Assembly: GCA_963729715.1 (NCBI GenBank)
Contig: CAVSPA010000007.1
Location: 160,001-224,000, forward strand
Reading direction: 5' to 3'
From: an uncultured delta proteobacterium
Lineage (GTDB): Bacteria; Desulfobacterota; Syntrophia; Syntrophales; UBA2185
DNA length: 64,000 nucleotides
Shown here one piece after another: positions 13,731 to 63,375 of this stretch; the stretch's first letter is position 1; each line of letters begins with the position of its first letter. The translations under genes were made by a program, and so were the position numbers. The notes under the pieces are model-generated. The model saw only the letters and a program-made list of their open reading frames with translations. It did no database searches and had not been told where the DNA came from.

Positions 13731-13746
13731 TGGCATCAGTATTGCT
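13731..13746 (+). promoter_or_regulatory. Sigma-54 (-24/-12) promoter of the hydrogenase operon
   Basis: TGGCATcagtaTTGCT, exact GG-N10-GC spacing. Confidence 0.85.
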
Positions 13747-13903: not shown

Positions 13904-15703
13904 ATGTGGAAGACCACTATCCAGGGAGAGGCGTCTGTGGAGCCTGCCATCAAGCAGTGTCTCGCACCGTGCCAGGAGCGATGTCCCATCAACGAGGATA
14001 TCCAACGCACAAACGTCCTCATCTCCTTGCTGCCGGAGGATATCGAGCAGGCCAAAGAGGGCCTGATACAGATCGGGGATTATCTTTTTGAAAATAACCC
14101 TCTCTTCCCCGTGTGCGGCTATGTCTGCGGTATATGCGAACTGGGTTGTAATTACCAGAGCAAGGGGGGGTCCATCAGAAGAAGGCTCTTGAAGCGGTTT
14201 GTATCTGATTATTTTTTAAATCACCTCGATGAGAAAAAAGAATACGACGTCGTTAAGGACAAGGGAAACGTGGCCGTCATCGGCGGGGGCCCGGGCGGGC
14301 TGATGTGCGCCTTTCACCTCGGCAGAAAAGGCTACAGAGTGACTATCTTCGAGGCCTCGGGCAGACTCGGAGGAGCGCTCTGGCTGATCCCTCATTATCG
14401 CCTCCCCAAGATAGTACTGCAGAGGGTCATAGAAAACATGCTGCGGGTGGCCGGTGTGGAAGTAAAATACAATTCGAGGATCGGCGAGGGGAATCTCACC
14501 CTCGATAAACTAAGGAAGGACGGCTACAAGGCGGTGTTCATCGCTAAAGGGACGCCCACACCGAGGGTACTCACCTTTGGTCGGGAGATGGTGGAGAACC
14601 AGGATTTGGATGGCGTCATGTATGGGCAAACTTTTCTCTATGAGGTGAGTCGAGGCATCCTCGTGAAAGATTACCTGGGCGAAAAGAAGGTTATCGTCAT
14701 TGGCGGCGGCAACGTGGCCTTTGATGCGGCACGATCAGCCAAGAGGTTGGGTGGAGATGTTACACTGGTGGCCCTCGAAAATGAGGACAAGTCCTCAAAG
14801 GACGGTATTCCCGCAGACCACGAGGAAATCCGGGGCGCCTGGGAAGAAGGCATAAGGATCACCTACTCTCGCGGTGTAAGTAAAATATTGGGCGAAGAAG
14901 GAAGATTCACTGGTATTGTCTCTCCTAAATGCACGGGCGTCTTCGATAAGGAGGGCAGGTTCAATCCGGAATTCGACACCGGCGACACCGTCACCATGAA
15001 CGGCGATGCCCTTATCATCACCGTCGGCCAAGGGCCGGATCGGGCGTTTCTTCAAGGAGAGGGCCTATTGGATGAAAATGGGCGGCTGGCTGTGGATCCA
15101 CTCACCCTCCAGAGCAGCAACAAAGAATGGGTTTTCGTCGGCGGCGACGTGCGAAGGGTAGGCTTTATGGTGGATGCTATGAGGGAAGGCCAGGAGGCCG
15201 CCGAGTCCATTGAGCGTTACCTCAAGGGAATCGATATCAGGGCTGGCAGGAAAAAAGAATTTGAGGCATTCGATATACCGGCCCTAAAGGATGAAGACTA
15301 CAGGTCTGAGCCCGAAGTAGTATGGATACCGGCAGAGAAGCGCGTACACTTCCAGATGTTTGAGAAAGGCTTCACCCTCAAAGAAGCCATCGAGGAAGCG
15401 AGGCGCTGTCTCTGCTGCGGCCCCTGCGTGTCGTGCAAGGCATGTATATCCATCGGTATGCAGGACGAACTGCCGTCTGTTGTTGTTCATGAGCACCTCT
15501 GCAGCGGATGCGGGATATGTGTATCGTCCTGCCATTACGGCGCGGCCTATCTCAAGGAGCAGGTCGGCCACCTTGTATCCGCAACCGACATATTCAGATG
15601 CAAGGCCTGCGGTATGTGCGTATCAGCCTGCCCGGCCGGCGCCAGAGAACTGATCGGCTCCGACATGGAAGAACGTATCGCCGAGGTCTATGCCTCGCTT
15701 TAA
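13904..15703 (+). CDS. FAD/NAD(P)H oxidoreductase (GltD/NfnB-like) with HdrA-like C-terminal 4Fe-4S domains
   Basis: N-terminal CQERCP and CGYVCGICELGC Fe-S motifs, GGGPGG, GGGNVA, then CLCCGPCVSCKAC, CSGCGICVSSC, CKACGMCVSACP. Confidence 0.88.
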   Translation: MWKTTIQGEASVEPAIKQCLAPCQERCPINEDIQRTNVLISLLPEDIEQAKEGLIQIGDYLFENNPLFPVCGYVCGICELGCNYQSKGGSIRRRLLKRFVSDYFLNHLDEKKEYDVVKDKGNVAVIGGGPGGLMCAFHLGRKGYRVTIFEASGRLGGALWLIPHYRLPKIVLQRVIENMLRVAGVEVKYNSRIGEGNLTLDKLRKDGYKAVFIAKGTPTPRVLTFGREMVENQDLDGVMYGQTFLYEVSRGILVKDYLGEKKVIVIGGGNVAFDAARSAKRLGGDVTLVALENEDKSSKDGIPADHEEIRGAWEEGIRITYSRGVSKILGEEGRFTGIVSPKCTGVFDKEGRFNPEFDTGDTVTMNGDALIITVGQGPDRAFLQGEGLLDENGRLAVDPLTLQSSNKEWVFVGGDVRRVGFMVDAMREGQEAAESIERYLKGIDIRAGRKKEFEAFDIPALKDEDYRSEPEVVWIPAEKRVHFQMFEKGFTLKEAIEEARRCLCCGPCVSCKACISIGMQDELPSVVVHEHLCSGCGICVSSCHYGAAYLKEQVGHLVSATDIFRCKACGMCVSACPAGARELIGSDMEERIAEVYASL

Positions 15704-15744
15704 GGATAAATATCCTGGAAATCAGAATAGCGGGAGTAGCAAAA

Positions 15745-16371
15745 ATGGGAACATCCAAATTGACAATCACGCATCCTGAGATTTCACACACTTCTCTGAA
15801 TGCATACTTATCGCGTAGAGCCCCCGAAAGGGTGAAATTACGGATAGCTATCCTGCAGGGTGTCATGGACAGAGTGCCCATAAATCACCTGAGTCGGCGG
15901 CGCAAGATGTCCCGGCAGGGTATCTATAATCTTGTTGACCGCATAAACAGAGAAGGTTTGCGGGGTATCGAGGATCAACATCTCGGTCGCCCCGGCAAAC
16001 TGACGGCAGACATCGCTGAAGATCTGAAAGAGACATTAATCCATTCACCGCTGGATCAGGGGTACGCGCAGCTACGCTGGGACAACTCGCTCGTAAGAAG
16101 GTATCTGAGAGAGAGGCACGGGATCGACATAGGCCGCGCTCAACTCATTAACTGGCTGCACGCGATCGGCACCCCTGTGAAACTGGCCCGGAAGAAGTAT
16201 GAGAAGGCAGCTTCCGAAAGAAGAAGATCATTCGTTGATTATCTGAATCAGCTGGCAGATAGGATCACCCTCTTGGGGGATGAAGCAGGCGCTCAATTAG
16301 ACGTAGAGCTTATTGCCCAGTGGGCGCCGGAAGGATGCCCACCACATTTGTTCACGGGCAGCATACGGTGA
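15745..16371 (+). mobile_element. IS630-family transposase-derived winged-HTH ORF, truncated after the first catalytic Asp
   Basis: SRQGIYNLVDRINREGLRG, GRPGKL, WDNSLVRRYL, WLHAIG, LLGDEAG then stop. 9-bp inverted repeat ATCAGAATA (15721-15729)/TATTCTGAT (16398-16406). Confidence 0.72.
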
Positions 16372-16444
16372 CATGATAATCTCAAGGGAAATGCGAGTAT
16401 TCTGATGAATGGGTATTATGAAAATAGTGCACGAGGAGGACGAT

Positions 16445-16840
16445 ATGAAGGAGTTTACCCCCAAGCTTGTATGCTTCTCCTGTAAGTTCGGGTGGGGCTA
16501 TTTGAATGGCAATGGCTATGCGAAGAAGCTGAAGAACGTTATCCCCGTGGCTTGCAGCGGCAAGGTGGATGCCACACATATCATCGATGCTTTCAAGGAA
16601 GGGGCGGACGGCGTGTTAATACTGGGCTGCGCCGACAAGGAATGTCATTTTCAGACCGGCAACTACCAGGCGAGAAAGAGGGTCCTTCTATTGAAGAAAA
16701 CGCTTAAAGAATTCGGCATCGCGCCCGGCCGACTCAAGATAGCCCTCAGTCTCGACCCGGAAGGCACGAAGATCCCCGTCTTCATCGAGGAGATGAAAAA
16801 AGAGGTTGAGAGTTTGGGACCTCTTTCCATCAGGGCGTGA
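16445..16840 (+). CDS. mvhD: Hydrogenase iron-sulfur subunit MvhD ([2Fe-2S])
   Basis: PKLVCFSC, VACSGKVD, GADGVLILGC...CHF..GNY. GAGGAGG RBS. Confidence 0.88.
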   Translation: MKEFTPKLVCFSCKFGWGYLNGNGYAKKLKNVIPVACSGKVDATHIIDAFKEGADGVLILGCADKECHFQTGNYQARKRVLLLKKTLKEFGIAPGRLKIALSLDPEGTKIPVFIEEMKKEVESLGPLSIRA

Positions 16841-16925
16841 ATCGGCGACTGATGATGAAACATTCGAAAATATTCTTTTTGTGTCATTCCGAAGCGCGAA
16901 GCAACGAGGAAGATTGGAGGATAAT

Positions 16926-17903
16926 ATGGCAGAGAAACCCAAGGTGGCAATTTACTGGCTCGCATCCTGCGCAGGCTGCGATGAGGCCATAGTGGATCTG
17001 AACGAAGTTATTCTGACGGTCGCCGATGCCGTGGATATTGTGCTATGGCCTGTTGCCCTAGACTTCAAGTATGAAAGCATCCGCAAGATGAAAAAGGGAG
17101 AGATAGCCCTTTCCATCCTTCACGGGTCTGTGCGTAATTCCGAGCAGGAAGAGATGGCCAAGCTCCTCCGGGAAAAATCGCAGCTCGTGCTGGCTTTCGG
17201 CGCTTGTGCCTGCTTCGGGGGCACGGCGGGACTGGCGAACTTCATTTCAAAAAAGGATATCTTCGACTGGGTCTACCAAGACGCGCCGACAGTAGTGAAC
17301 CCGAACAATAACAGGCCTCAGACGGAAACGAAAGTCAACGGAAACAAGCTGACTCTTCCAGATTTTTTCGACCGGGTTTATCCCCTCCACGATATCATCC
17401 ATGTAGACTATTACCTGCCCGGATGCCCCCCGCCACCGGAACTTATAGCAAACGCGGTCTTCGCCGTCCTCGAAGACAAGCTTCCTCCGCGAGGCGCGAC
17501 ACTCGCACCTACCAAGCCTCTGTGCGACACATGTCCACGGAACAAATCCAAGCCGCTCAAGATGGAGATATCGGAGTTCAAGAGGATACACGAGATTGAA
17601 GCGAAGGATGACCAGTGTTTTCTCGCACAGGGCGTCCTCTGTATAGGGCCTGCGATCCGTTCAGGGTGCGGAGAAACATGCATCAGAACCAATGTTCCCT
17701 GCAGGGGTTGCTTCGGTCCTGTCGACGGTGTGGATGATGCAGGCGCGAGATTCATCTCCGGATTGGCATCGCTCATCGGCGCAGAAAGCGAGGCGGAAGC
17801 TGAAAAAAGCATCGCAGGGATTGCCGACCTGGCAGGTTACTGTTACCGCTTCAGTCTCCCGAGGGCGTCGCTCAACAGAAAGAGCAAGAATAAGGAGAAA
17901 TAA
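16926..17903 (+). CDS. mvhG: [NiFe]-hydrogenase small subunit MvhG
   Basis: SCAGCD, FGACA, PGCPP, CDTC, PCRGCFG. No Tat leader. Confidence 0.92.
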   Translation: MAEKPKVAIYWLASCAGCDEAIVDLNEVILTVADAVDIVLWPVALDFKYESIRKMKKGEIALSILHGSVRNSEQEEMAKLLREKSQLVLAFGACACFGGTAGLANFISKKDIFDWVYQDAPTVVNPNNNRPQTETKVNGNKLTLPDFFDRVYPLHDIIHVDYYLPGCPPPPELIANAVFAVLEDKLPPRGATLAPTKPLCDTCPRNKSKPLKMEISEFKRIHEIEAKDDQCFLAQGVLCIGPAIRSGCGETCIRTNVPCRGCFGPVDGVDDAGARFISGLASLIGAESEAEAEKSIAGIADLAGYCYRFSLPRASLNRKSKNKEK

Positions 17904-17905
17904 CC

Positions 17906-19366
17906 ATGGCACGAAAGATAACGATAGACCCGATAACCAGGCTTGAAGGACACGGCAAGATAGAGTTGCTTCTCGATGATCAGGGGAACGTAAAGGATGC
18001 CTACTGGCAGGTGGCCGAGTTGCGCGGGTTTGAGCGCTTCTGTCTCGGCAGACCCGCGGAAGAAATGCCGAGGATCGTGCCCAACATATGCGGAGTGTGT
18101 CCTTCGGCGCACCACATGGCCGCCACCAAGGCCCTCGACGACCTCTACAGTGTCGAGCCCACACCGGCGGCAAGACTGATCAGGGAACTCGAATTCAACG
18201 CCTTCTATATCGAGGACCACTACATCCACTTCTTCTTCCTCGCGGCGCCCGATTTCGTCGTCGGCCCGCACGCCGACCCGAAAGAGCGAAACATCCTCGG
18301 CGTTATCGGCAAGGTGGGCAAGGAAATAGGACTCAAGGTAATTGAAGTGAGAAAGAGAAACCGGGACATCATCCGGCACATCTTCACCAAGGCGCCGCAC
18401 CCAGAAGGCGGGCTGCCCGGCGGCGTACCGAGGGGATTTACCGAGCAGGACAGGAAATGGGTCAAGGACACCGCCGTCTTTTCTCTCGACTTCGCCAAGT
18501 TCGCGATCCAGCTCTTCAAGGACGTAGTTCTCAAGAATAAGTCCTACGTGGATCTCATCCTGAACGATGCCTATAAGCTCAAGACTTACTACATGGCCCT
18601 TGTGGATGAAAACGACAAGTCAGTCTTTTATGACGGGCAAGTCAAGGTCATCGATCCTGAAGGCAAAGAATACGTGAGATTCCACCCCCGCGACTACGAT
18701 CAGTATATCGGTGAATGGGTGGAGCCGTGGACATACATCAGGCTCAACCACTTAAGACAGCTTGGCTGGCATGGGCTCAAGGAAGGCAACGGCACATCGC
18801 TGTACCGCGTCGCACCGCTCGCCAGGCTCAACGTAGCCGCCGCCATGCAGACCCCGCTTGCGCAGAAAGAAGCGGAGATCATGTTCGATACTCTGGGAGG
18901 CAAGCCCGCCCATCATACGCTCGCCACGCACTGGGCGCGGCTCATCTGCGCGCTTCAGGCTGCGGAAAATAATGTGCTCATCGCGGATGAACCTCTGCTT
19001 ACCAGCAAGGATATCAGAAACATGAACCTCAAGCTCAAAAACAAGGGCGTGGGCTGTGTGGAGGCGCCGCGTGGAACCCTTTTTCATCATTATGAGACGG
19101 ATGACGAAGGCATACTGACGAAGGTCAACCTCATCGTGGCTACGCAGAATAATGCCGCCCCCATCTGCCTGTCTGTAAAGAAGGCCGCCCAGGAATTCGT
19201 CCATGGGCCGGATGTGAAGGAAGGTTTCCTGAACATGGTAGAGATGGCATTTCGGGCCTATGATCCCTGTCTCTCCTGCGCGACACACTCTCTGCCCGGC
19301 ACGATGCCGCTCCAAGTTAAGATCAGGGATCACGCGGGCAGAGTGATAAGGGAAATAAGCCGCTGA
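17906..19366 (+). CDS. mvhA: [NiFe]-hydrogenase large subunit MvhA (group 3c-like)
   Basis: TRLEGH, RGFE, ICGVC, EAPRGTL, RAYDPCLSCATH plus a cleavable C-terminal tail. Confidence 0.95.
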   Translation: MARKITIDPITRLEGHGKIELLLDDQGNVKDAYWQVAELRGFERFCLGRPAEEMPRIVPNICGVCPSAHHMAATKALDDLYSVEPTPAARLIRELEFNAFYIEDHYIHFFFLAAPDFVVGPHADPKERNILGVIGKVGKEIGLKVIEVRKRNRDIIRHIFTKAPHPEGGLPGGVPRGFTEQDRKWVKDTAVFSLDFAKFAIQLFKDVVLKNKSYVDLILNDAYKLKTYYMALVDENDKSVFYDGQVKVIDPEGKEYVRFHPRDYDQYIGEWVEPWTYIRLNHLRQLGWHGLKEGNGTSLYRVAPLARLNVAAAMQTPLAQKEAEIMFDTLGGKPAHHTLATHWARLICALQAAENNVLIADEPLLTSKDIRNMNLKLKNKGVGCVEAPRGTLFHHYETDDEGILTKVNLIVATQNNAAPICLSVKKAAQEFVHGPDVKEGFLNMVEMAFRAYDPCLSCATHSLPGTMPLQVKIRDHAGRVIREISR

Positions 19367-19438
19367 TAGATGGCAGGCTTGGAAGAATGTATATGTCATC
19401 CCTTCACGAAGAAGGGACGTCGGAGGATGGAATTAACA

Positions 19439-19924
19439 ATGAAGACGCTTATCCTCGGCATGGGCAATCCCATACTGTCGGATGACGGTGTGGGGTTGGT
19501 CCTTGCGGAAAGGCTCCGGAATAAAATTCACGGGGCGGATGTCGCAGCAAGCGCCATCATCGGCCTTTCCCTCTTCGATTTAATCATGGGCTACGATACT
19601 CTCTTCATCATTGATGCAATGACCACGAAAGAAGGACAAGTGGGAGGACTCAAGAAGATCGGCGCGGATGACCGCTGCGGCACGCTGCATCTCTTTTCTT
19701 CACACGGCTTCAATATCTTTGATCTTATGGAACTCGGCCTGCAATGCGGTTTTGAGATGCCCTGTCTTGCCGCTGTCTACGGTGTCGAAATAGGTAGTGA
19801 GGTAGCCTTCGATGAGAGTCTTTCGCAGGGGCTCCATGAAAAAATTCCCGCCATAGCCGCAGAGCTTATCGATGATATGACGGCAATCCAGCGATCACTA
19901 TCCGCCGCTGCGGCGACCAGTTGA
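19439..19924 (+). CDS. Hydrogenase maturation protease
   Basis: LGMGNPILSDDGVG, IIDA, SSH. Alternative start at 19427. Confidence 0.92.
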   Translation: MKTLILGMGNPILSDDGVGLVLAERLRNKIHGADVAASAIIGLSLFDLIMGYDTLFIIDAMTTKEGQVGGLKKIGADDRCGTLHLFSSHGFNIFDLMELGLQCGFEMPCLAAVYGVEIGSEVAFDESLSQGLHEKIPAIAAELIDDMTAIQRSLSAAAATS

Positions 19925-20094: not shown

Positions 20095-20127
20095 AAAGAG
20101 CGGTGTTCGAGAAAGCACCGCTCTCTT
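20095..20127. terminator. Stem-loop, probable terminator
   Basis: AGAGCGGTG-N10-CACCGCTCT. Confidence 0.5.
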
Positions 20128-23987: not shown

Positions 23988-25118
23988 TCATGATAGAGCC
24001 TCAGGAAGTTTCTCCACCCTCGGATGGGGGACGGGGAATTTCAATATACATGTTGTGCCTTCACCTTCTTTCGATGTGGCCCTTATTTCCCCGCCATGGG
24101 AATCCATGATCTTCTTACAAAAAGTCAATCCGAGACCAGACCCTTTGTGGCGTTCTTCCTTGCCCCCTGCTCTGAAAAACGGCTCAAAGATAAAGGGGAG
24201 CTTGTCCTCGGGAATGCCAATTCCTGTATCCGAAATGTCCACAATAACATAGTACTCATCGTTCCGGGCAGAAACAGATATTTTGCCGCCATCCTGCGTA
24301 TATTTTGTTGCATTGCCTATGATATTGATGAATACCCTGACCAAACTTTCCTCATCACCGACAATTTGGAATAAATTCTCCGGAACATTTACCTCAAATG
24401 TAATTCCTCTTTCGTTACAAATAGGCATCATTTCCTCGGCGCTGCGGAAAATTACGTCTGATAACCTCAAGGGCTCTTTCTTTTGTGCAAAGGTACCGTT
24501 TTCTATCCGGCTGAGATCCAGCCAGTGTTCAATCAATTCTTCAAGCTTCTGGACGCGAGCGCTGCATCTCTCAATAAGGTCCGAGACGTCTTTATCGAAG
24601 CGATCACCTGTGACCGCTTTCAGAGATTCCATGCATTGTCTGATGACGACCAGAGGGGAACGCATTTCGTGGCTCACGAACGTAATGAAATGCCTCTCCA
24701 TCCGCTCCTTTTCTTCCCTTAATACTCTTGTCTCTATCCTGAGGTTGCGGTGCTCAAGACCTCGTCTGGCCACAGCCCTCAACTGGTCAGGACTGAACGG
24801 TTTCGGGAGATAGTCGTAGGCCCCTTTCTGTATGGCTTCTACGGCAGAGACTATGGTTGCATAGCCGGTAATCATGATAAGAATGACGTCAGGTATATCC
24901 CTGGAGAGGATCTCAATTATTTCCATGCCCGATATACCCGGCATTTTAAGATCCACAAAGGCTATGTACGGTTTATTCTCCCTCGCGATCTTGATGCCTT
25001 CGACCCCTTCCCCCGCAGTCAAGACGGCATACCCCGACCTTTCCAGCGTCTGCCTGCATCCATCCCGCAGGGATTCCTCATCATCGATGATCAAAATGAG
25101 AGGTTTCTGAGCATTCAT
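23988..25118 (-). CDS. Hybrid response regulator-histidine kinase (REC-HisKA-HATPase)
   Basis: IIDDE, DLKMP, SHEMRSPL, NATKY, DTGIG, GSGLGL. Confidence 0.93.
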   Translation of the reverse strand: MNAQKPLILIIDDEESLRDGCRQTLERSGYAVLTAGEGVEGIKIARENKPYIAFVDLKMPGISGMEIIEILSRDIPDVILIMITGYATIVSAVEAIQKGAYDYLPKPFSPDQLRAVARRGLEHRNLRIETRVLREEKERMERHFITFVSHEMRSPLVVIRQCMESLKAVTGDRFDKDVSDLIERCSARVQKLEELIEHWLDLSRIENGTFAQKKEPLRLSDVIFRSAEEMMPICNERGITFEVNVPENLFQIVGDEESLVRVFINIIGNATKYTQDGGKISVSARNDEYYVIVDISDTGIGIPEDKLPFIFEPFFRAGGKEERHKGSGLGLTFCKKIMDSHGGEIRATSKEGEGTTCILKFPVPHPRVEKLPEALS

Positions 25119-25126
25119 TTTGCTAA

Positions 25127-25513
25127 TTACTTGCCCAGCGCCTGGGCAATATATCCAAGGAGGTCATCAGCCTTGACCGGTTTATGCAGTACCTTGTTCA
25201 CCTTGGGAAACTCGGCCGGCGGTTCGAACGACTGGTACGGGCCCTGCAAGTCCACAGCGCTCAACATGAATAGCGGCGTATCCTTCCCGGTATCTGTGGC
25301 ACGGATTTTTTTCAGTACTGAGAAGCCTTCACCCCATGTCTCCATCATCATATCGATAATGGCAAGGTCTGGGGTCACGGATTTCCACATCTCAACTCCG
25401 CTCTTGCCGTCTTCTGCTAAGAACACCTCGTACCCGCCCTTTTCAAGAATCAGTTTGGTGGCGAATAGAAAATCTTTGTCATCGTCTATCAAGAGAATCT
25501 TTTTCTTTGTCAT
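25127..25513 (-). CDS. Single-domain response regulator
   Basis: LIDDD, IIDMMM, HKP. GGAGG RBS. Confidence 0.92.
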   Translation of the reverse strand: MTKKKILLIDDDKDFLFATKLILEKGGYEVFLAEDGKSGVEMWKSVTPDLAIIDMMMETWGEGFSVLKKIRATDTGKDTPLFMLSAVDLQGPYQSFEPPAEFPKVNKVLHKPVKADDLLGYIAQALGK

Positions 25514-25552
25514 CGTTCATTACCTCCATTCTTGATTTTTGTAATTAATATG

Positions 25553-25568
25553 AGCAAGGATGATGCCA
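25553..25568 (-). promoter_or_regulatory. Sigma-54 (-24/-12) promoter
   Basis: Reverse complement TGGCATcatccTTGCT, GG-N10-GC. Confidence 0.85.
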
Positions 25569-25573
25569 GATTG

Positions 25574-25586
25574 TAACTTATTGATT
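25574..25586 (-). promoter_or_regulatory. IHF binding site
   Basis: Reverse complement AATCAAtaagTTA matches WATCAANNNNTTR and lies between the UAS and the promoter. Confidence 0.7.
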
Positions 25587-25631
25587 TATAAAGAAGAAAT
25601 ATGGAGAGTAGTAGGAAAGGCGGACATTTGA

Positions 25632-25667
25632 GGGGCGAAACTCCCCCTCCCTGAGGCGGATAACCCC
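25632..25667. promoter_or_regulatory. Tandem enhancer (UAS) boxes
   Basis: GGGGcgaaactCCCC (25632-25646) and GAGGcggataaCCCC (25653-25667), starts 21 bp apart. Confidence 0.75.
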
Positions 25668-25684
25668 TTGCGGCAATGTTTTTT

Positions 25685-27040
25685 CTAACGATGCTCCATC
25701 TTTATACCGTAATTGCGCATTTTTATCCGGAGAGTCTTCCTGTCAATACCGAGGAATTTTGCCGTCTTGTTGATCTGGAAGTGAAAGTGGTTGAGGGCCT
25801 TTAGTATGTGTTCCTTTTCCACATCTATCAGAGTCATCCTGCCGGTGGAAGAATCCACCACAGGGGCTTTTGCGTGATCTTCCTGACCATAGTAAAATAT
25901 ATCAGACAGGTTAACGACCTCATGGTCGCACAGCACACACAGACGCTCGACGATGTTCTTTAGTTCCCGGATATTACCGGGCCATCTGTATGATACGAGC
26001 GACTTCTTCGCCTCTTCCGAAAATGATCGCACCTTGCTTTCGTACTTCGTTATGAATATATTAAGGTAATGGTGGGCTATGGGGAGGATGTCGGCTTTAT
26101 GTTCTCTCAGTGGTTTTATGGGGAGAGGCACGACGGAAAGCCTGTAAAATAGATCCTCCCTGAACCTCCCCGCTTCGATTTCTGCGCGGATATCCTTATT
26201 CGTTGCAGCAATCAGCCTGACATCTATCCGTTCCGGTGACGATCTGCCAACCTTGGGCACCTCCTGTTCCTGAATTACCCTAAGCAGTTTCGCTTGGATG
26301 TTGAGGTTGATGTTGGAAATCTCGTCAAGAAATAATGTTCCCTTATCTGCCATCTGGAAACGGCCCTCACGCGACTCCGTAGCGCCGCTGAATGCCCCTT
26401 TGACATGTCCGAATAATTCACTCTCCATGAGGGTCTCTACCAGAGAGGAACAATCGACGGGAATGAAGGGTTGATTGGCTCTCTTGCTGAGATTGTGGAT
26501 GGTGCGCGCCACAAGTTCTTTTCCCGTACCGCTTTCTCCTGTGATGAGGACGGTACTGTCGGTTTGTGCTATCCGGTTGATGGATTCCTTAAGCTCTTTC
26601 ATATAGTCGCTCGTGCCGAATAGCAGGGACAGTCTCTTATCCGCATTGCCCTCGTCCCGCTTGAGGGCATCCTCGACAACGCGATTCAGATCGGCTGCGG
26701 AATAGGGCTTCGTCAGGAAATTGAAGGCGCCCTGCCTCATTGCCTCAACGGCAATGGAGATGCTGCCATAGCCGGTGATAACAATGATTCTTGCGGAGAT
26801 GTTTCTTTCGACTTTCAGCTTTGCGAGAATCTCCAGTCCATCCATCTTGGGCATCCGGATATCCAACAGGATCACATCATAGATATCCTTGAGGGCCATC
26901 TCAAGCCCCCGAGGCGCATCTCCCGTGCATGCCACCTGGTACCCCTTGCGCGACAGCACTTGTGTGCACGCATCCCGCATGGATTCCTCGTCATCAATAA
27001 TCAGAATCTTCTTATTTTTCGAAGTCACTGTTTCCGTCAC
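25685..27040 (-). CDS. Sigma-54-dependent response regulator (NtrC family)
   Basis: REC domain, [40 protein letters not shown], Fis-type HTH. Confidence 0.95.
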
Positions 27041-27091
27041 CCTTCTTATTTTATAGAATTAACTGTAAAACACATCTTCGTCCATGCCACT

Positions 27092-29065
27092 TTATCTGCC
27101 CGGATATGCGGGAAGGGAGATAATGAAAGTCGCTCCCTTTCCGGGCCTGCTTTCCGCATCGATGATGCCATTGTGCTTCCTGATGATGCCATAAACTATG
27201 GGAAGTCCAAGGCCCGTCCCTTGGCCGGGTTCCTTTGTTGTAAAGAAAGGTTCGAAAATATGTGGGAAATCTTTTTCTTCTATTCCTTTGCCGGTGTCTG
27301 CGATCAGGATCTTCACTGAATTGTCGGCACCCTGCATAGTGGTAATCGTTAACGTCCCTCCGCCTTTCATGGCATCGGCGGCATTGATGAAGAGATTCAG
27401 AAATACGTCTTCCAGCCTGGACTTGTCGCCCATGACTTCAGGAAGGTTTTCTGCGAGATGGGTGTTTATTTCTATGCCGTGGAACATTACCTGGTCCTTT
27501 ACCAGACTGAGGGAACTCTCAATGACGCCGTTTATATGGAAAGGCAGCATCTCGCCTGTCGGCGTCCGGGCAAAGTCAAGCAGGCTCTCGACGATCCTCT
27601 TTGACCTGTTCGTCTGGTAAATTATCTTCTGCATATTTTCCCTTGCAGGAGAATCTTCCGGAATATCTTCGAGAACGAGGTTGCTGTAAAGGAGTATACC
27701 GCCCAGCGGGTTGTTTATCTCGTGGGCCACACCTGCCGCCATTTCACCCAGTGCCGTGAGCTTCTCCGTCCTGGCCAGTTGCTGATGAGCCCTGTGAAGC
27801 ATTTCATTGTGATTCTTTAGGGATTTCGACATATAATTGAACGCCTCATCAAGCATGTCAAATCCAGACATTTTGTCAGGCGATAATTTATAATCGAGAT
27901 TGCCGGCGGCTATAGACTCCGCGGCCTCCTTCAGCATGCGTATGCGTTTTATTATGGTGTCCCCCAGTCTAAATGAGATGATAAAGGCGATGATCATGCC
28001 GAGAGATGTAATACCCAGGTTGATCCAGATGGTATTCCATTTTATGTCTCTGTACTTTGCCTCCAGAATGCCCACATAGAGCGCCCCTATGAGCTTCTTC
28101 TCTATGTCGTAGATGGGGGTATAGGTGGTTATGTACCAGTCATTAACTACGAATGCCCTGCCGACCCAGTCTTTGCCTTCCACTATGACCCTGTCATATA
28201 CTTCCTTGGACAACATAGTGCCGACGGCCCTCTCGTTGTCTTTCGTCATAACGTTGGTGGATATTCTCACCCCACCCTGAAATATGGTTGCCACACCCAT
28301 TTCACGGCCCTTATACTTTTCACCCTGGTATACGGTTTCCTTTATCTTGTCCACAATCTCATAGTCCTTGTTAAGGAGAACCCCTCCGATTATAGCGCCG
28401 ATTAATCTCTTACTCCCATCAAGAATAGGATATGCTGCCATCATTACCATGCCGCGGGAGAGTCGCTTCTCACTCGATTCAAAAGAGAGAGGAGTTTTTA
28501 TGATTTCTATCCCGACCCGCCCGGCAAGATTAGGGTTTTCCCTGATGATATCATCGATGGGTATGAGTTCCGAAGATGCCTGCGTAGATTTCTTTTCTAT
28601 GCAGTTTTTCACAACTGGCTCCCAGAGCATACTGTCTCCCCTTATTTTCGGGTTCGCCGCCCTGTAGAGGACACGCCCTTGGGCATCGACGACCAAAAGG
28701 ATATCGAGGAACACGTCACCGTCCTGGGCCTGCGTCCCTCCCTCATGCCGGATTAAGCCTTTCAGGTTCTCCATTTTGGGGATGTCATGGCTGGCTATCG
28801 TTGTATGCAGGTTTACCGCTTCTGCCGCAAATTCAATCTGGGAAGTTATCTTTTCCAGCGTCACTCTGTAGATTAGTTTTGCTGTATTGATGTCTTGTCT
28901 GACCCGGTTTTGCACTTCGTCTATTGTACTCTTATTAATTGTCCATATGCCGATGACGGTGGCTGTGAGCCCGGTGATACATGTTGCAATCAGGAATCCC
29001 ACTATCAGGCGGCGCCGGAGATCGAGCTTGAAAAGTTGACTCACCAGCCTGTCGACAAATTTCAT
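27092..29065 (-). CDS. Cache-domain sensor histidine kinase (TM-Cache-TM-HAMP-HisKA-HATPase)
   Basis: ATIFQGGVRISTNV..RAVGT Cache motif, AHEINNPL, PFFTTK, GTGLGL. Confidence 0.93.
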   Translation of the reverse strand: MKFVDRLVSQLFKLDLRRRLIVGFLIATCITGLTATVIGIWTINKSTIDEVQNRVRQDINTAKLIYRVTLEKITSQIEFAAEAVNLHTTIASHDIPKMENLKGLIRHEGGTQAQDGDVFLDILLVVDAQGRVLYRAANPKIRGDSMLWEPVVKNCIEKKSTQASSELIPIDDIIRENPNLAGRVGIEIIKTPLSFESSEKRLSRGMVMMAAYPILDGSKRLIGAIIGGVLLNKDYEIVDKIKETVYQGEKYKGREMGVATIFQGGVRISTNVMTKDNERAVGTMLSKEVYDRVIVEGKDWVGRAFVVNDWYITTYTPIYDIEKKLIGALYVGILEAKYRDIKWNTIWINLGITSLGMIIAFIISFRLGDTIIKRIRMLKEAAESIAAGNLDYKLSPDKMSGFDMLDEAFNYMSKSLKNHNEMLHRAHQQLARTEKLTALGEMAAGVAHEINNPLGGILLYSNLVLEDIPEDSPARENMQKIIYQTNRSKRIVESLLDFARTPTGEMLPFHINGVIESSLSLVKDQVMFHGIEINTHLAENLPEVMGDKSRLEDVFLNLFINAADAMKGGGTLTITTMQGADNSVKILIADTGKGIEEKDFPHIFEPFFTTKEPGQGTGLGLPIVYGIIRKHNGIIDAESRPGKGATFIISLPAYPGR

Positions 29066-47635: not shown

Positions 47636-49384
47636 TTATTCAGCCAAATACACAGTCAGGCAAAGCCAGACCAGGGAACTTATGCCGGCTATGATATAGC
47701 TAGTTTCGAGAATACCCTCCTGAACAACGCCGGAAAATGCCGCCCTTCTAACATAAAGCCTGAAATAAATCCACATAAAAAATATGCAGACCAGGAGGGT
47801 AAAACTCAGCGAGGAAGTCCACCCTAAGGCATGGGATACGCTGAGCAAAATGACCAGCAAAACGAGTATCCCCTGCAACAGAATCTGGGTGGATTTCTTG
47901 CCTATCAGAACAGGTATCGTCTCGCGGCCGATGAGCCTATCGCTCTGTATATCCAAGATATCGGATATGGCGGAGCGAACGAAGACAATGCCGAAGGTAA
48001 AGAGAAAAGCCACAAACATACCGGCGGTGACGGAAAGACTGATTTCGAATTGCGGCAGCACTGCCGCAACAGCAGCCCAAGCCATGGCCATGAAAATGTT
48101 CTTGGAACCCGGCAGGTCTTTAAGGCTCTTGAAGCGCAGGTTCCCCGGCAGTATTTTCGTATTATAGAGCACGCCAAAAATGGAAATCAAAAAAAGCAAT
48201 ATGAAGGCGTTCAAGCCTGCAATGAAGGAAATTGTCAGGGCCAGGACCAGAGACACGACTGCCGCCGATACATAAGCATTTTCATGTTTGAGATAAGATT
48301 CTTCCCTGAATGATCCGATGATGGTGCTCGTTTTTCTGTTGATGAGCCGGTTGAGTGTATGCATGGCATATACATAAAGGGACGTTGTCAGAATATTCAA
48401 TACATTCACAGGGAGTCTCTGCAAGAGCATGCTTGCAAAAGACAGACATCCGGCTCCCATAGCAGAATAAATTTCCGTCTTGACTGCGAACACCCAGAAG
48501 CTGTAGAGCCTCTGTACCTGCTTCTGTCTCTCATCCTGATGGCTCGTAACAGCTTCAAAAACCCGGTTGATGATCCAGTTGGGCGTCGATGCACCTGCGG
48601 AAATACCGATCTTCTCGTACCGGCTTGAAGGAATGTCGTCTAATTCATCGGCAGTCTCGATGTGAAACGTCGGCTTGCACTCAAGCTGTGAAATCCTGAC
48701 CAGCCTTTTTGTATTTGCACTGTTCCTGCCGCCAACGATAAATACGGCATCCATTTCTGCGGCCAGGGCCTTAACTTCCGACTGCCTCTTTTCCGTGGAA
48801 TCACAAATAGTATTGAAAATGACGGCCTCGGGAAACCTTGTCTTGATCTTTTCCACGATGTCAATAAACGCGTCCGTACTCTGCGTGGTCTGAGCGACTA
48901 CACATACCTTGTCGAGGGGCCGAAGATTATCGACCTCCGCCGCGCTGCCGATAACGAAGCCATTGCCGTCGGCATATCCAAGAAGACCATTAACCTCCGG
49001 GTGCTCCCTGTCGCCGATGATGAGAACTGCGTAGTCCGATGATGCGTGCTTTTTGATAATAGCCTGGACATGCGCCACTTTAGGACAGGTGGCGTCAACG
49101 ATCTTGATTCCTTTCTCCCTGATCTTATTTCTCTCCTCCGGGGATATGCCGTGGGCCCTGATTATGATCGTGGCGCCTTTGCCGGACACGTGAATATTGT
49201 CGATGTCCATTACCGGGATAATTCCCCTCGTCCTTAAGAGCTCGACAGTCTGAGGATTGTGGATTAGGGGGCCATACGTATAGACATCCTCTTTCCCTTT
49301 GCGCTGGGCAATGTCAAGGACGAGATCGACGGCCCTTCTCACACCCATGCAAAATCCCGCTGTCTTGGCAAGTTTAACGCCCAT
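47636..49384 (-). CDS. ispH: IspH (HMBPP reductase) fused to a UbiA-like membrane domain
   Basis: GFCMGV, DATCP, QTT, NTICDST, GASTP followed by about 8 TM helices with DILDIQSDRLIGRETIP. Confidence 0.93.
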   Translation of the reverse strand: MGVKLAKTAGFCMGVRRAVDLVLDIAQRKGKEDVYTYGPLIHNPQTVELLRTRGIIPVMDIDNIHVSGKGATIIIRAHGISPEERNKIREKGIKIVDATCPKVAHVQAIIKKHASSDYAVLIIGDREHPEVNGLLGYADGNGFVIGSAAEVDNLRPLDKVCVVAQTTQSTDAFIDIVEKIKTRFPEAVIFNTICDSTEKRQSEVKALAAEMDAVFIVGGRNSANTKRLVRISQLECKPTFHIETADELDDIPSSRYEKIGISAGASTPNWIINRVFEAVTSHQDERQKQVQRLYSFWVFAVKTEIYSAMGAGCLSFASMLLQRLPVNVLNILTTSLYVYAMHTLNRLINRKTSTIIGSFREESYLKHENAYVSAAVVSLVLALTISFIAGLNAFILLFLISIFGVLYNTKILPGNLRFKSLKDLPGSKNIFMAMAWAAVAAVLPQFEISLSVTAGMFVAFLFTFGIVFVRSAISDILDIQSDRLIGRETIPVLIGKKSTQILLQGILVLLVILLSVSHALGWTSSLSFTLLVCIFFMWIYFRLYVRRAAFSGVVQEGILETSYIIAGISSLVWLCLTVYLAE

Positions 49385-62754: not shown

Positions 62755-63375
62755 AAACTACCACCGACCTTGTCGGTGGCTTTCTTGAAGGACGACAACT
62801 CCTGACAATGTCATTCGCTGTCGTCCCTCCATAACCCAAGCTGCTCTTCTCGCATCTGATCTTCTACTTGCTCTTTAACATATTTCTGAATGGTGGCGCT
62901 GTCGATTCCCACAGTGCTCACAAAATAGCCCCCGGCCCATATATGCAGCCCCCAATACTTTTTGCACAATTCAGGAAAATCCCTACGCAGATACTCTGCA
63001 CTTTTTCCTTTGAGGATCTTCATTACATGGGCCGGAGAATATTTCGGAGGAACTGAAAGATACATATGCACGTGATCTGAACATATCGCTCCTTCTATAA
63101 TTGTGACGTCAAGCCAGTTGCATAACTCCACCAACAGCTCCTTTAATCTTGGCTTGATCTCTTTCACCAGCACCTGATAGCGGTATTTCGGAACCCAAAC
63201 GAAGTGATACTCACATCGGTAAATTGCATGAGATGATTTGTTGTATTCTTCCATACCCTTGCCTCCTATGGATACGTTACAACAAATCCTATCTGCTTAT
63301 CAACATTGTTGATGCGCTAAAGGTGTGGGGCCTCCGCCCCCACGCCCCACCACTGACTATGTCAGTGGTTTTGAG
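62755..63375 (-). mobile_element. IS200-type insertion sequence (tnpA only), ends approximate
   Basis: Subterminal hairpins CCACCGAC-ctt-GTCGGTGG (62761-62779) and ACCACTGAC-tat-GTCAGTGGT (63349-63369) flank tnpA. Confidence 0.88.
62811..63254 (-). CDS. tnpA: IS200/IS605 Y1 HUH transposase
   Basis: YHFVWVPKYR, DHVH, KGKSA, WAGGYFVSTVG, catalytic YVKEQ. Confidence 0.95.
   Translation of the reverse strand: MEEYNKSSHAIYRCEYHFVWVPKYRYQVLVKEIKPRLKELLVELCNWLDVTIIEGAICSDHVHMYLSVPPKYSPAHVMKILKGKSAEYLRRDFPELCKKYWGLHIWAGGYFVSTVGIDSATIQKYVKEQVEDQMREEQLGLWRDDSE

Follow-up and report, generated by a model that had tools for sequence, protein, structure and literature searches.

In the methanogen complexes of group 3c [NiFe] hydrogenases (MvhAGD-HdrABC and VhuAGD-Hdr; PDB 5ODC, 9SW2, and 9SFI), HdrA's N- and C-terminal domains and MvhAGD form one "mobile arm" (PMC13580544). 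Bacterial group 3c hydrogenases are generally taken to be bifurcating enzymes linked to Hdr, and surveys of syntroph genomes count "HdrABC/Mvh" as a single unit (PMC13685792, PMC5606693, PMC6129605). Among related flavoproteins, HdrL of Desulfobacterium autotrophicum and Syntrophobacter fumaroxidans is a fusion of HdrA and NfnB types (PMC2702500, PMC5947623), and the domain of NfnA/StnC that resembles NfnL is a non-bifurcating NADPH entry port that feeds a cluster chain (PMC12018979). Here we describe an operon from an uncultured delta proteobacterium of the order Syntrophales, contained in a stretch of 64,000 nucleotides (nt) (the window; positions 160,001 to 224,000 of contig CAVSPA010000007.1, assembly GCA_963729715.1), in which an NfnB/GltD-like flavoprotein with an HdrA-type tail is encoded together with MvhD, MvhG, and MvhA. 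We conclude that this operon is a real, conserved variant of the Mvh hydrogenase, and we lean toward the reading that the four proteins form a soluble, four-subunit [NiFe] hydrogenase that acts as a simple reversible H2:NAD+ oxidoreductase and is probably non-bifurcating.

The operon comprises six closely packed open reading frames (ORFs) on the plus strand, at window positions 13904-19924. An earlier reading of the same DNA (the original prediction) had assigned a flavoprotein gene and Mvh genes to this interval. Its coordinates and gene content were confirmed, and a 208-aa ORF between the flavoprotein gene and mvhD, which it had missed, is added here:

13904..15703, plus strand: NfnB/GltD-like FAD/NAD(H) iron-sulfur flavoprotein, 599 aa (Pfam, NCBIfam, and PDB matches; AlphaFold model)
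15745..16371, plus strand: helix-turn-helix ORF derived from an IS630 transposase, 208 aa, without the DDE half, a lineage-specific insertion (NCBIfam)
16409..16840, plus strand: MvhD, [2Fe-2S] adaptor subunit, 143 aa (FlpD, 105 bits; 5odc_D, 79 bits)
about 16926..17903, plus strand: MvhG, small subunit of the long Mvh type, 325 aa (5odc_E, 219 bits)
17906..19366, plus strand: MvhA-like [NiFe] large subunit, 486 aa (VhuA model, 366 bits)
19370..19924, plus strand: hydrogenase maturation endopeptidase, ORF of 184 aa (TIGR00072, 74 bits)

The hydrogenase subunits resemble those of methanogen MvhAGD, with 340, 219, and 79 bits for MvhA, MvhG, and MvhD, respectively. MvhG matches 5odc_E over its full length (residues 6-315 against 3-293); small subunits of the HoxY and HydS types align with its N-terminal half only (residues 4-186). 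The mvhG start at 16926 is consistent with all tblastn matches, and an internal ATG at 16445 is a possible alternative start of mvhD. Five cysteines of MvhD (C22, C25, C49, C74, and C79) are invariant among 31 sequences. The MvhA-like subunit contains CGVC near residue 62 and a C-terminal DPCLSCATH motif, followed by a 25-residue extension. Its best NCBIfam match is the VhuA model, at 366 bits under a cut-off of 800, and its PDB matches are 7t2r_D (363 bits), 5odc_F (340 bits), and 5xf9_D (303 bits). It is thus about as close to the large subunits of NiFe-HydABCSL (7T2R) and group 3d Hox (5XF9) as to MvhA. The predicted overall reaction would also be that of these enzymes and of the group 3b sulfhydrogenase, but the operon differs from such NAD(P)-linked soluble hydrogenases in its long MvhG-type small subunit and in a GltD-type FAD diaphorase joined via MvhD, rather than a NuoF-type FMN diaphorase. 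Homology of the maturation endopeptidase begins near residue 24 of its ORF, and HypD, also a maturation protein, is encoded in the genome. Of the traits of group 3c (Mvh/Vhu), the operon shows the Ni-Fe cysteine pairs, the long MvhG-type small subunit, and MvhD, and it lacks the partnering with HdrABC.

The body of the flavoprotein combines a DPD/GltD-type N-terminal Fe-S domain with a two-Rossmann FAD/NAD(P) part and a C-terminal dicluster ferredoxin domain (Pfam Fer4_20, 18-106; Pyr_redox_2, 122-429; and Fer4_7, 533-580). The protein falls under the cut-off of every curated NCBIfam model, the best being PRK12771 (324 bits against 516). The matches of residues 17-443 among solved structures are NfnA from the Bfu-type NfnABC (9n5u_A, 210 bits) and NfnL (5jca_L, 184 bits), and the match to StnC (8oh5_C, 177 bits) reaches residue 515. 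After the GltD body come a five-cysteine motif (C502-C514) and an HdrA-type C-terminal 2x[4Fe-4S] domain (C533-C576). In a search with the tail alone, residues 522-583 matched the C-terminal ferredoxin domain of HdrA (9sfi_A 573-634, E 4e-16); the tail also matches 5odc_A 558-633. The HdrA flavin domain has no match anywhere in the flavoprotein. Pfam and PDB matches therefore agree with the original prediction, which had described GltD/NfnB-type motifs followed by an HdrA-like ferredoxin tail and no HdrA flavin domain. An AlphaFold model of the flavoprotein (predicted local distance difference test [pLDDT] 75.5, predicted template modeling score [pTM] 0.72) likewise placed it nearer NfnA/StnC (Foldseek TMq 0.69-0.67) than NfnL (0.59). 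Comparison by VIA gave Z 36.1 to 34.9 for NfnA/StnC, the top match having a root-mean-square deviation of 3.3 over 451 aligned residues (model 17-510) and two of the matches extending to model residues 584-587; the value for NfnL was Z 30.7 (model 17-442).

The closest relatives by both sequence and structure are thus NfnA/StnC of the Bfu-type NfnABC/StnABC enzymes (9N5U/9N5V, 9BOV, and 8OH5), with which the flavoprotein shares a lysine at the ligand site of the proximal cluster and a match that continues through the post-GltD cysteine motif. Unlike NfnA/StnC, it lacks a NuoG/Fdh-like domain and ends at residue 599 after the ferredoxin domain, its fingerprint is of the NADH rather than the NADPH type, and the Mvh hydrogenase would be its output; the cassette has no BfuBC (HydBC-like) core and no NuoF- or NuoE-like genes. 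With NfnB/NfnL of NfnAB (NfnSL; 4YLF and 5JCA) it shares the fold, the FAD and NAD(P) sites, the N-terminal cluster domain, and an arginine discussed below, but it has a lysine in place of the glutamate ligand, no YRR, an extra Fe-S tail of 150 residues, and no NfnA/NfnS (PyrK-like FAD/[2Fe-2S]) partner in the operon or among conserved neighbors. In common with MvhAGD-HdrABC, there is a tail that matches HdrA's C-terminal ferredoxin domain, the predicted dock for MvhD, but the thioredoxin reductase-like flavin domain of HdrA is missing, and neither operon nor window encodes HdrB or HdrC. Because the flavin module is instead NfnB/GltD-like, with a pyridine-nucleotide site, no heterodisulfide chemistry would be expected.

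HdrL has the same succession of an NfnB-like domain, a Cys-rich motif, and a C-terminal ferredoxin domain, and an mvhD gene follows each. The flavoprotein, however, lacks the first 154 residues of HdrL and its HdrA-like middle of ∼400 residues, carries ALE rather than YRR, is linked to mvhGA rather than hdrBC, and belongs to a separate clade; at 599 aa it also lacks the HdrA-like flavin/Fe-S body of ∼1000 aa or more. It aligns to the HdrL of its own genome at residues 155-634 (31% identity) and 1039-1104. A fragment of a broken hdrL was considered and rejected, since the flavoprotein is the full-length product of a conserved family in a separate clade and a separate, full HdrL of 1124 aa is encoded on another contig, C5. 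The original prediction had set the complex apart from both HdrABC-Mvh and full-length HdrL, and a tree that separates the flavoprotein from the HdrL of the same genome supports that distinction.

We examined the family and its gene linkage. The 120 best database clusters share 65-97% identity with the flavoprotein; 119 of these span the whole protein (100%) and are 594-613 aa long. A scan of one genome per species yielded 77 loci, 46 orthologues (at least 43% identity) and 31 paralogues (30-38%). Wherever 450 nt or more lay downstream (43 orthologue loci), mvhD came next; wherever 3100 nt or more did (40 loci), mvhD-mvhG-mvhA followed; and the protease followed mvhA in 34 of the 37 with room for it. 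Among the 31 paralogue loci, one had an mvhD-like gene and none had mvhG or mvhA. In a maximum-likelihood tree of 76 rows, from which two short rows (L035 and L056) were left out, the 39 Mvh-linked proteins formed one clade (SH-aLRT 100, stem 0.96), separate both from the paralogues and from eight that the same genome encodes, HdrL among them. These data indicate that the flavoprotein represents a full-length conserved family and an old, separate lineage. In three Acidobacteriota loci (L040-L042), the cassette is complete through mvhA and the protease is missing.

The cassette is widespread in uncultured anaerobes. Of 121 genomes sampled from its order, 8 carry it (7 of the 98 that are high-quality; 5 of the 58 genera), and it occurs also in metagenome-assembled genomes (MAGs) of Acidobacteriota, Geobacteraceae, and Desulfatiglandales, a distribution that weakens the earlier suggestion of a complex suited to syntrophy. 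One full-length flavoprotein of 67% identity (P0081) bears the label of an archaeal MAG, Candidatus Methanolliviera, which could reflect lateral transfer or a binning error.

Several lines of evidence place MvhD on the HdrA-like tail, in line with the original prediction, which noted that MvhD normally docks MvhAG onto HdrA. In-frame flavoprotein-MvhD fusions of 717-733 aa occur in 8 of 35 orthologues (L048-L054 and L057; Syntrophorhabdus type) and form one subclade of the tree, whose sister group is the unfused forms. Against the HdrA2 model, tail and MvhD are collinear, occupying positions 571-631 and 633-774, respectively. The mobile arm of the methanogen complexes, in which the terminal domains of HdrA go with MvhAGD (PMC13580544), points the same way. 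A complex model of flavoprotein residues 440-599 with MvhD reached an ipSAE of 0.76, against 0.00 for the best of three controls; the mark used for such models was met by 116 of 157 solved pairs and by 2 of 215 mismatched pairs. Runs shared at least 81% of contacts, with partner pLDDT of at least 80. In the modeled interface, flavoprotein residues 567-575 (the last cluster motif) and 586-599 (the C-terminal helix) face MvhD 42-54 and 80-84, beside the cysteine ligands of MvhD. A model of the fused protein (pLDDT 77.4, pTM 0.65) added nothing beyond the fusion itself. For S. fumaroxidans "Mvh1" (Sfum_3535-37), an FAD/NAD-binding subunit is listed in proteome papers, with no function assigned to it in the relevant passages (PMC5947623); its three genes would fit the fused flavoprotein-MvhD form as candidate orthologues.

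The choice of nucleotide can be approached through the strand that follows GGGNVA, for which the original prediction had reported the ending VALE and suggested NADH use. That ending is real and conserved. The query has A290-L291-E292, and the strand in orthologues ends in (A/C/S)-L-E, with a five-residue insertion. E292 is invariant in 32 of 32 orthologues, as are L291 and K97, and the same site is occupied by YRR in NfnL, NfnA, the HdrL of the same genome, and four other GltD paralogues of that genome. Other invariant residues in the orthologue alignment include C23, C27, C71, C75, C78, C82, and R166. Because E292 lies after the second Rossmann strand, the general Rossmann rule favors NADH, and the sequence favors NADH as the substrate preferred by the flavoprotein. 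The part of the suggestion that stands is thus a conserved NADH-type fingerprint, from which we infer the use of NADH itself.

Two further residues bear on whether the flavin bifurcates. In our alignments, whose numbering was checked against the published R234 and K165, K97 corresponds to K165 of NfnA from T. sibiricus, and NfnL has a glutamate there; Lys165 is the fourth ligand of the proximal cluster in that NfnA, and the ligand is Glu in the bifurcating NfnL (PMC12018979). R166 occupies the position of the arginine at FAD N5 and is invariant in the orthologues. Since the non-bifurcating NfnA/StnC retain this arginine too (PMC12018979), R166 decides nothing about bifurcation. Neither the operon nor the neighborhoods of its orthologues contained a conserved gene for a second flavoprotein of the NfnA/NfnS type or for a ferredoxin. 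Taken together, K97, the NfnA/StnC-like structure, and the lack of a conserved partner flavoprotein or ferredoxin gene favor a linear wire from NADH to H2.

In the preferred reading, NADH would donate a hydride to FAD in the GltD-like domain, and single electrons would then pass through the Lys-ligated proximal [4Fe-4S] cluster and a further N-terminal cluster. From there they would move to the cluster at C502-C514, the two HdrA-like tail clusters, the [2Fe-2S] cluster of MvhD, the clusters of MvhG, and finally the Ni-Fe site. Here too, the H2-evolving direction, NADH use, and any ferredoxin coupling are features that we infer. The direction would be set by H2 pressure: the E0′ values are −414 mV for H2 and −320 mV for NADH (PMC5861303), and by our own Nernst estimate NADH-driven H2 formation becomes favorable once H2 falls under roughly 60 Pa. 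A syntroph living with a methanogen would then dispose of NADH by forming H2, and other hosts could take H2 up. A precedent is reportedly provided by the ferredoxin-independent, NADH-dependent [FeFe] hydrogenases of Syntrophomonas and Syntrophus.

Several points weigh against this assignment. The correspondence of glutamate with NADH is a general rule for Rossmann folds that is uncalibrated for this subfamily, and the identical LE motif occurs in many uncharacterized paralogues. Related proteins have seven cysteines and one other ligand in the N-terminal Fe-S domain. Only six N-terminal cysteines are invariant here, and the number and wiring of the clusters are therefore uncertain; C19 is kept in 6 of 35 orthologues, and the first two cysteines of the usual N-terminal cluster motif are absent in most. 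The N- and C-terminal Fe-S arms could equally branch at FAD, and the Lys/Glu ligand difference is, in the relevant passages of its source, one without established functional meaning (PMC12018979). Both flavoprotein models are of middling confidence (pLDDT 75.5 and 77.4), and the docking score may reflect memory of structures, and thus likeness only, because HdrA-MvhD complexes have already been solved. We found no activity, cofactor, or expression data for any family member; a look-up of sequencing runs gave 9 from 4 studies, with no RNA run among them. A search of the openly accessible literature returned no work on the biochemistry or structure of a GltD/NfnB-like flavoprotein paired with MvhDGA.

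The strongest alternative, which we nevertheless consider unlikely, is an electron-confurcating or bifurcating [NiFe] hydrogenase in which the NfnB-like FAD is a branch point, with one arm leading to MvhD and the hydrogenase and the other to ferredoxin. NADH and reduced ferredoxin would then jointly drive H2 formation, or H2 would reduce both. The fold is indeed shared with the bifurcating NfnL (5jca_L, 184 bits; Z 30.7), and there are two distinct cluster-binding regions, one N-terminal and one C-terminal. The [2Fe-2S] partner MvhD parallels the [2Fe-2S] cluster of NfnS/NfnA (PMC5861303), and in Hdr complexes the HdrA tail holds a low-potential shuttle cluster (PMC13580544). The invariant R166 would also fit, but such an arginine is kept in the non-bifurcating relatives too, and K97 replaces the Glu ligand of NfnL just as in non-bifurcating NfnA/StnC. 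The scarcity of C19 (6 of 35 orthologues) weakens the case for a surface cluster facing ferredoxin, no conserved ferredoxin or second flavoprotein gene lies nearby, and, as we estimate it, dividing NADH electrons between H2 and ferredoxin in the manner of Nfn is uphill at realistic H2 pressures. A bolder form of this idea, to which we give rather less credence, is that the flavoprotein and MvhD constitute a minimal single-flavin bifurcating module among NADH, ferredoxin, and Mvh, and hence a third independent kind of confurcating hydrogenase, switched by a sigma-54 two-component system. If so, it would stand beside the HydABC-type and Hdr-linked enzymes.

Less probable again is a role for the flavoprotein and Mvh as an H2-input or -output arm only, working in trans with another acceptor (HdrBC, HdrL, or HdrA of contig C5, or a thiol/disulfide carrier), its nucleotide site using NADPH or being otherwise employed. 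The genome does encode Hdr proteins. The earlier statement that the complex occurs without HdrBC holds for the operon and the window, where Pfam scans of 60 ORFs outside the operon found no Hdr or CCG domain; the sole CCG match on this contig (C7:494631) is outside the window. It does not hold for the genome, since contig C5 (185-193 kb) encodes the HdrL of 1124 aa, an MvhD, an HdrBC fusion, and an HdrA-MvhD, adjoining genes for pyruvate:ferredoxin oxidoreductase, and three further FlpD domains are encoded in the genome. The surveys that lump Mvh with HdrABC in such lineages (PMC13685792, PMC5606693, PMC6129605) would also fit a role in trans. Against it, hdr genes were absent from every locus examined with the five query genes, where the conserved neighbors are regulators; the cassette supplies an MvhD as well as a flavin and NAD site of its own; and the C5 Hdr cluster has its own MvhD copies.

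Two features of contig C5 are recorded here. The HdrA there (region 181000-195000) is split into two adjacent same-strand ORFs of 202 and 610 aa, which could mark a selenocysteine TGA or a break. At C5:225897-229681 lies a second cytoplasmic [NiFe] hydrogenase, with a NuoG-like subunit bearing a molybdopterin-type domain, a small subunit that is short, and a large subunit that shares 42% identity with the MvhA of the window. Apart from the cassette, the genome has a Hox-like [NiFe] hydrogenase.

The 208-aa ORF inside the operon matches positions 2-172 of the 299-position IS630 model, that is, the DNA-binding half of the transposase without its DDE catalytic half. Besides the window genome, 6 of the 46 orthologue loci have it at the corresponding position, all from close Syntrophales (L014, L019, L020, L021, L023, and L024), and it is intact across six genomes. 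The ratio of nonsynonymous to synonymous substitution rates (dN/dS) is 0.14-0.27 for this ORF, with dS up to 1.9, compared with 0.03-0.07 for the flavoprotein and 0.03-0.12 for mvhD; L019 was left out of this count, as its copy diverges and ends early. No terminal or flanking inverted repeats were found around the ORF, and the genome has one distant paralogue. An active insertion element was rejected on these grounds: the missing DDE half and inverted repeats, the single distant paralogue, and purifying selection on the ORF. We read the ORF as a probable domesticated transposase remnant rather than a sign of decay, and it may be a DNA-binding protein; as an inserted helix-turn-helix gene, it would likely be a domesticated regulator or a neutral passenger. 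That the remnant uncouples the flavoprotein gene from mvhD in a crippled, decaying cassette is very improbable: the insertion does span 700 nt where the 37 other orthologue loci with downstream DNA have 0-130 nt or a fusion, but all six ORFs are intact, the arrangement is kept in six related species genomes at dS up to 1.9, and dN/dS is low for all three genes.

Three features around the operon concern its expression:

13731..13746, plus strand: candidate promoter-like element of the sigma-54 type, TGGCATCAGTATTGCT, located 173 nt upstream of the flavoprotein gene
20097..20124, plus strand: terminator-like hairpin with an 11-bp stem, after the last gene (protease), from a consensus scan only
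25685..27040, minus strand: NtrC-type sigma-54 activator (receiver, AAA+, and HTH_8 domains; Pfam), a candidate regulator of the operon

Of 39 orthologue loci, 19 have a loose sigma-54 motif in the 600 nt upstream, and nearly all of these 19 come from Syntrophales, Smithella, or Desulfomonilia; the background in the window is 0.023 per 600 nt per strand. In the window, the activator and a hybrid kinase (23988-25118) are ∼4-7 kb downstream of the cassette, and a Cache-domain sensor kinase and a single receiver protein lie with them (23988-29065). Orthologues of the activator with 67-80% identity are found directly upstream of the flavoprotein gene in nine relatives (L015, L022, L027-L030, L033, L037, and L038), and orthologues of activator and hybrid kinase together stand beside the cassette there at 62-80% identity. 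The activator is thus a candidate for the operon, and expression would likely be sigma-54 dependent under two-component control.

Two other loci in the window were recorded. On the minus strand at 47636-49384, a 582-aa ORF joins LytB/IspH (residues 3-279) to a UbiA-family prenyltransferase (315-547) in an unusual-looking fusion, amid isoprenoid genes (DXP synthase and polyprenyl synthetases). An IS200-like Y1 transposase gene lies near the end of the window (62811-63254, minus strand).

In this operon, and wherever an orthologue locus was examined, mvhDGA is partnered directly with an NAD-type flavoprotein. Should the operon encode a plain H2:NAD+ enzyme, models of metabolism in Syntrophales, Smithella, Syntrophorhabdus, Desulfomonilia, and some Acidobacteriota would have to represent it as a valve from NADH to H2, or as a route of uptake, rather than as a bifurcator that generates reduced ferredoxin. 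The pair of MvhD and HdrA tail would then be a portable docking module by which the Mvh hydrogenase can be plugged into unrelated flavoproteins.

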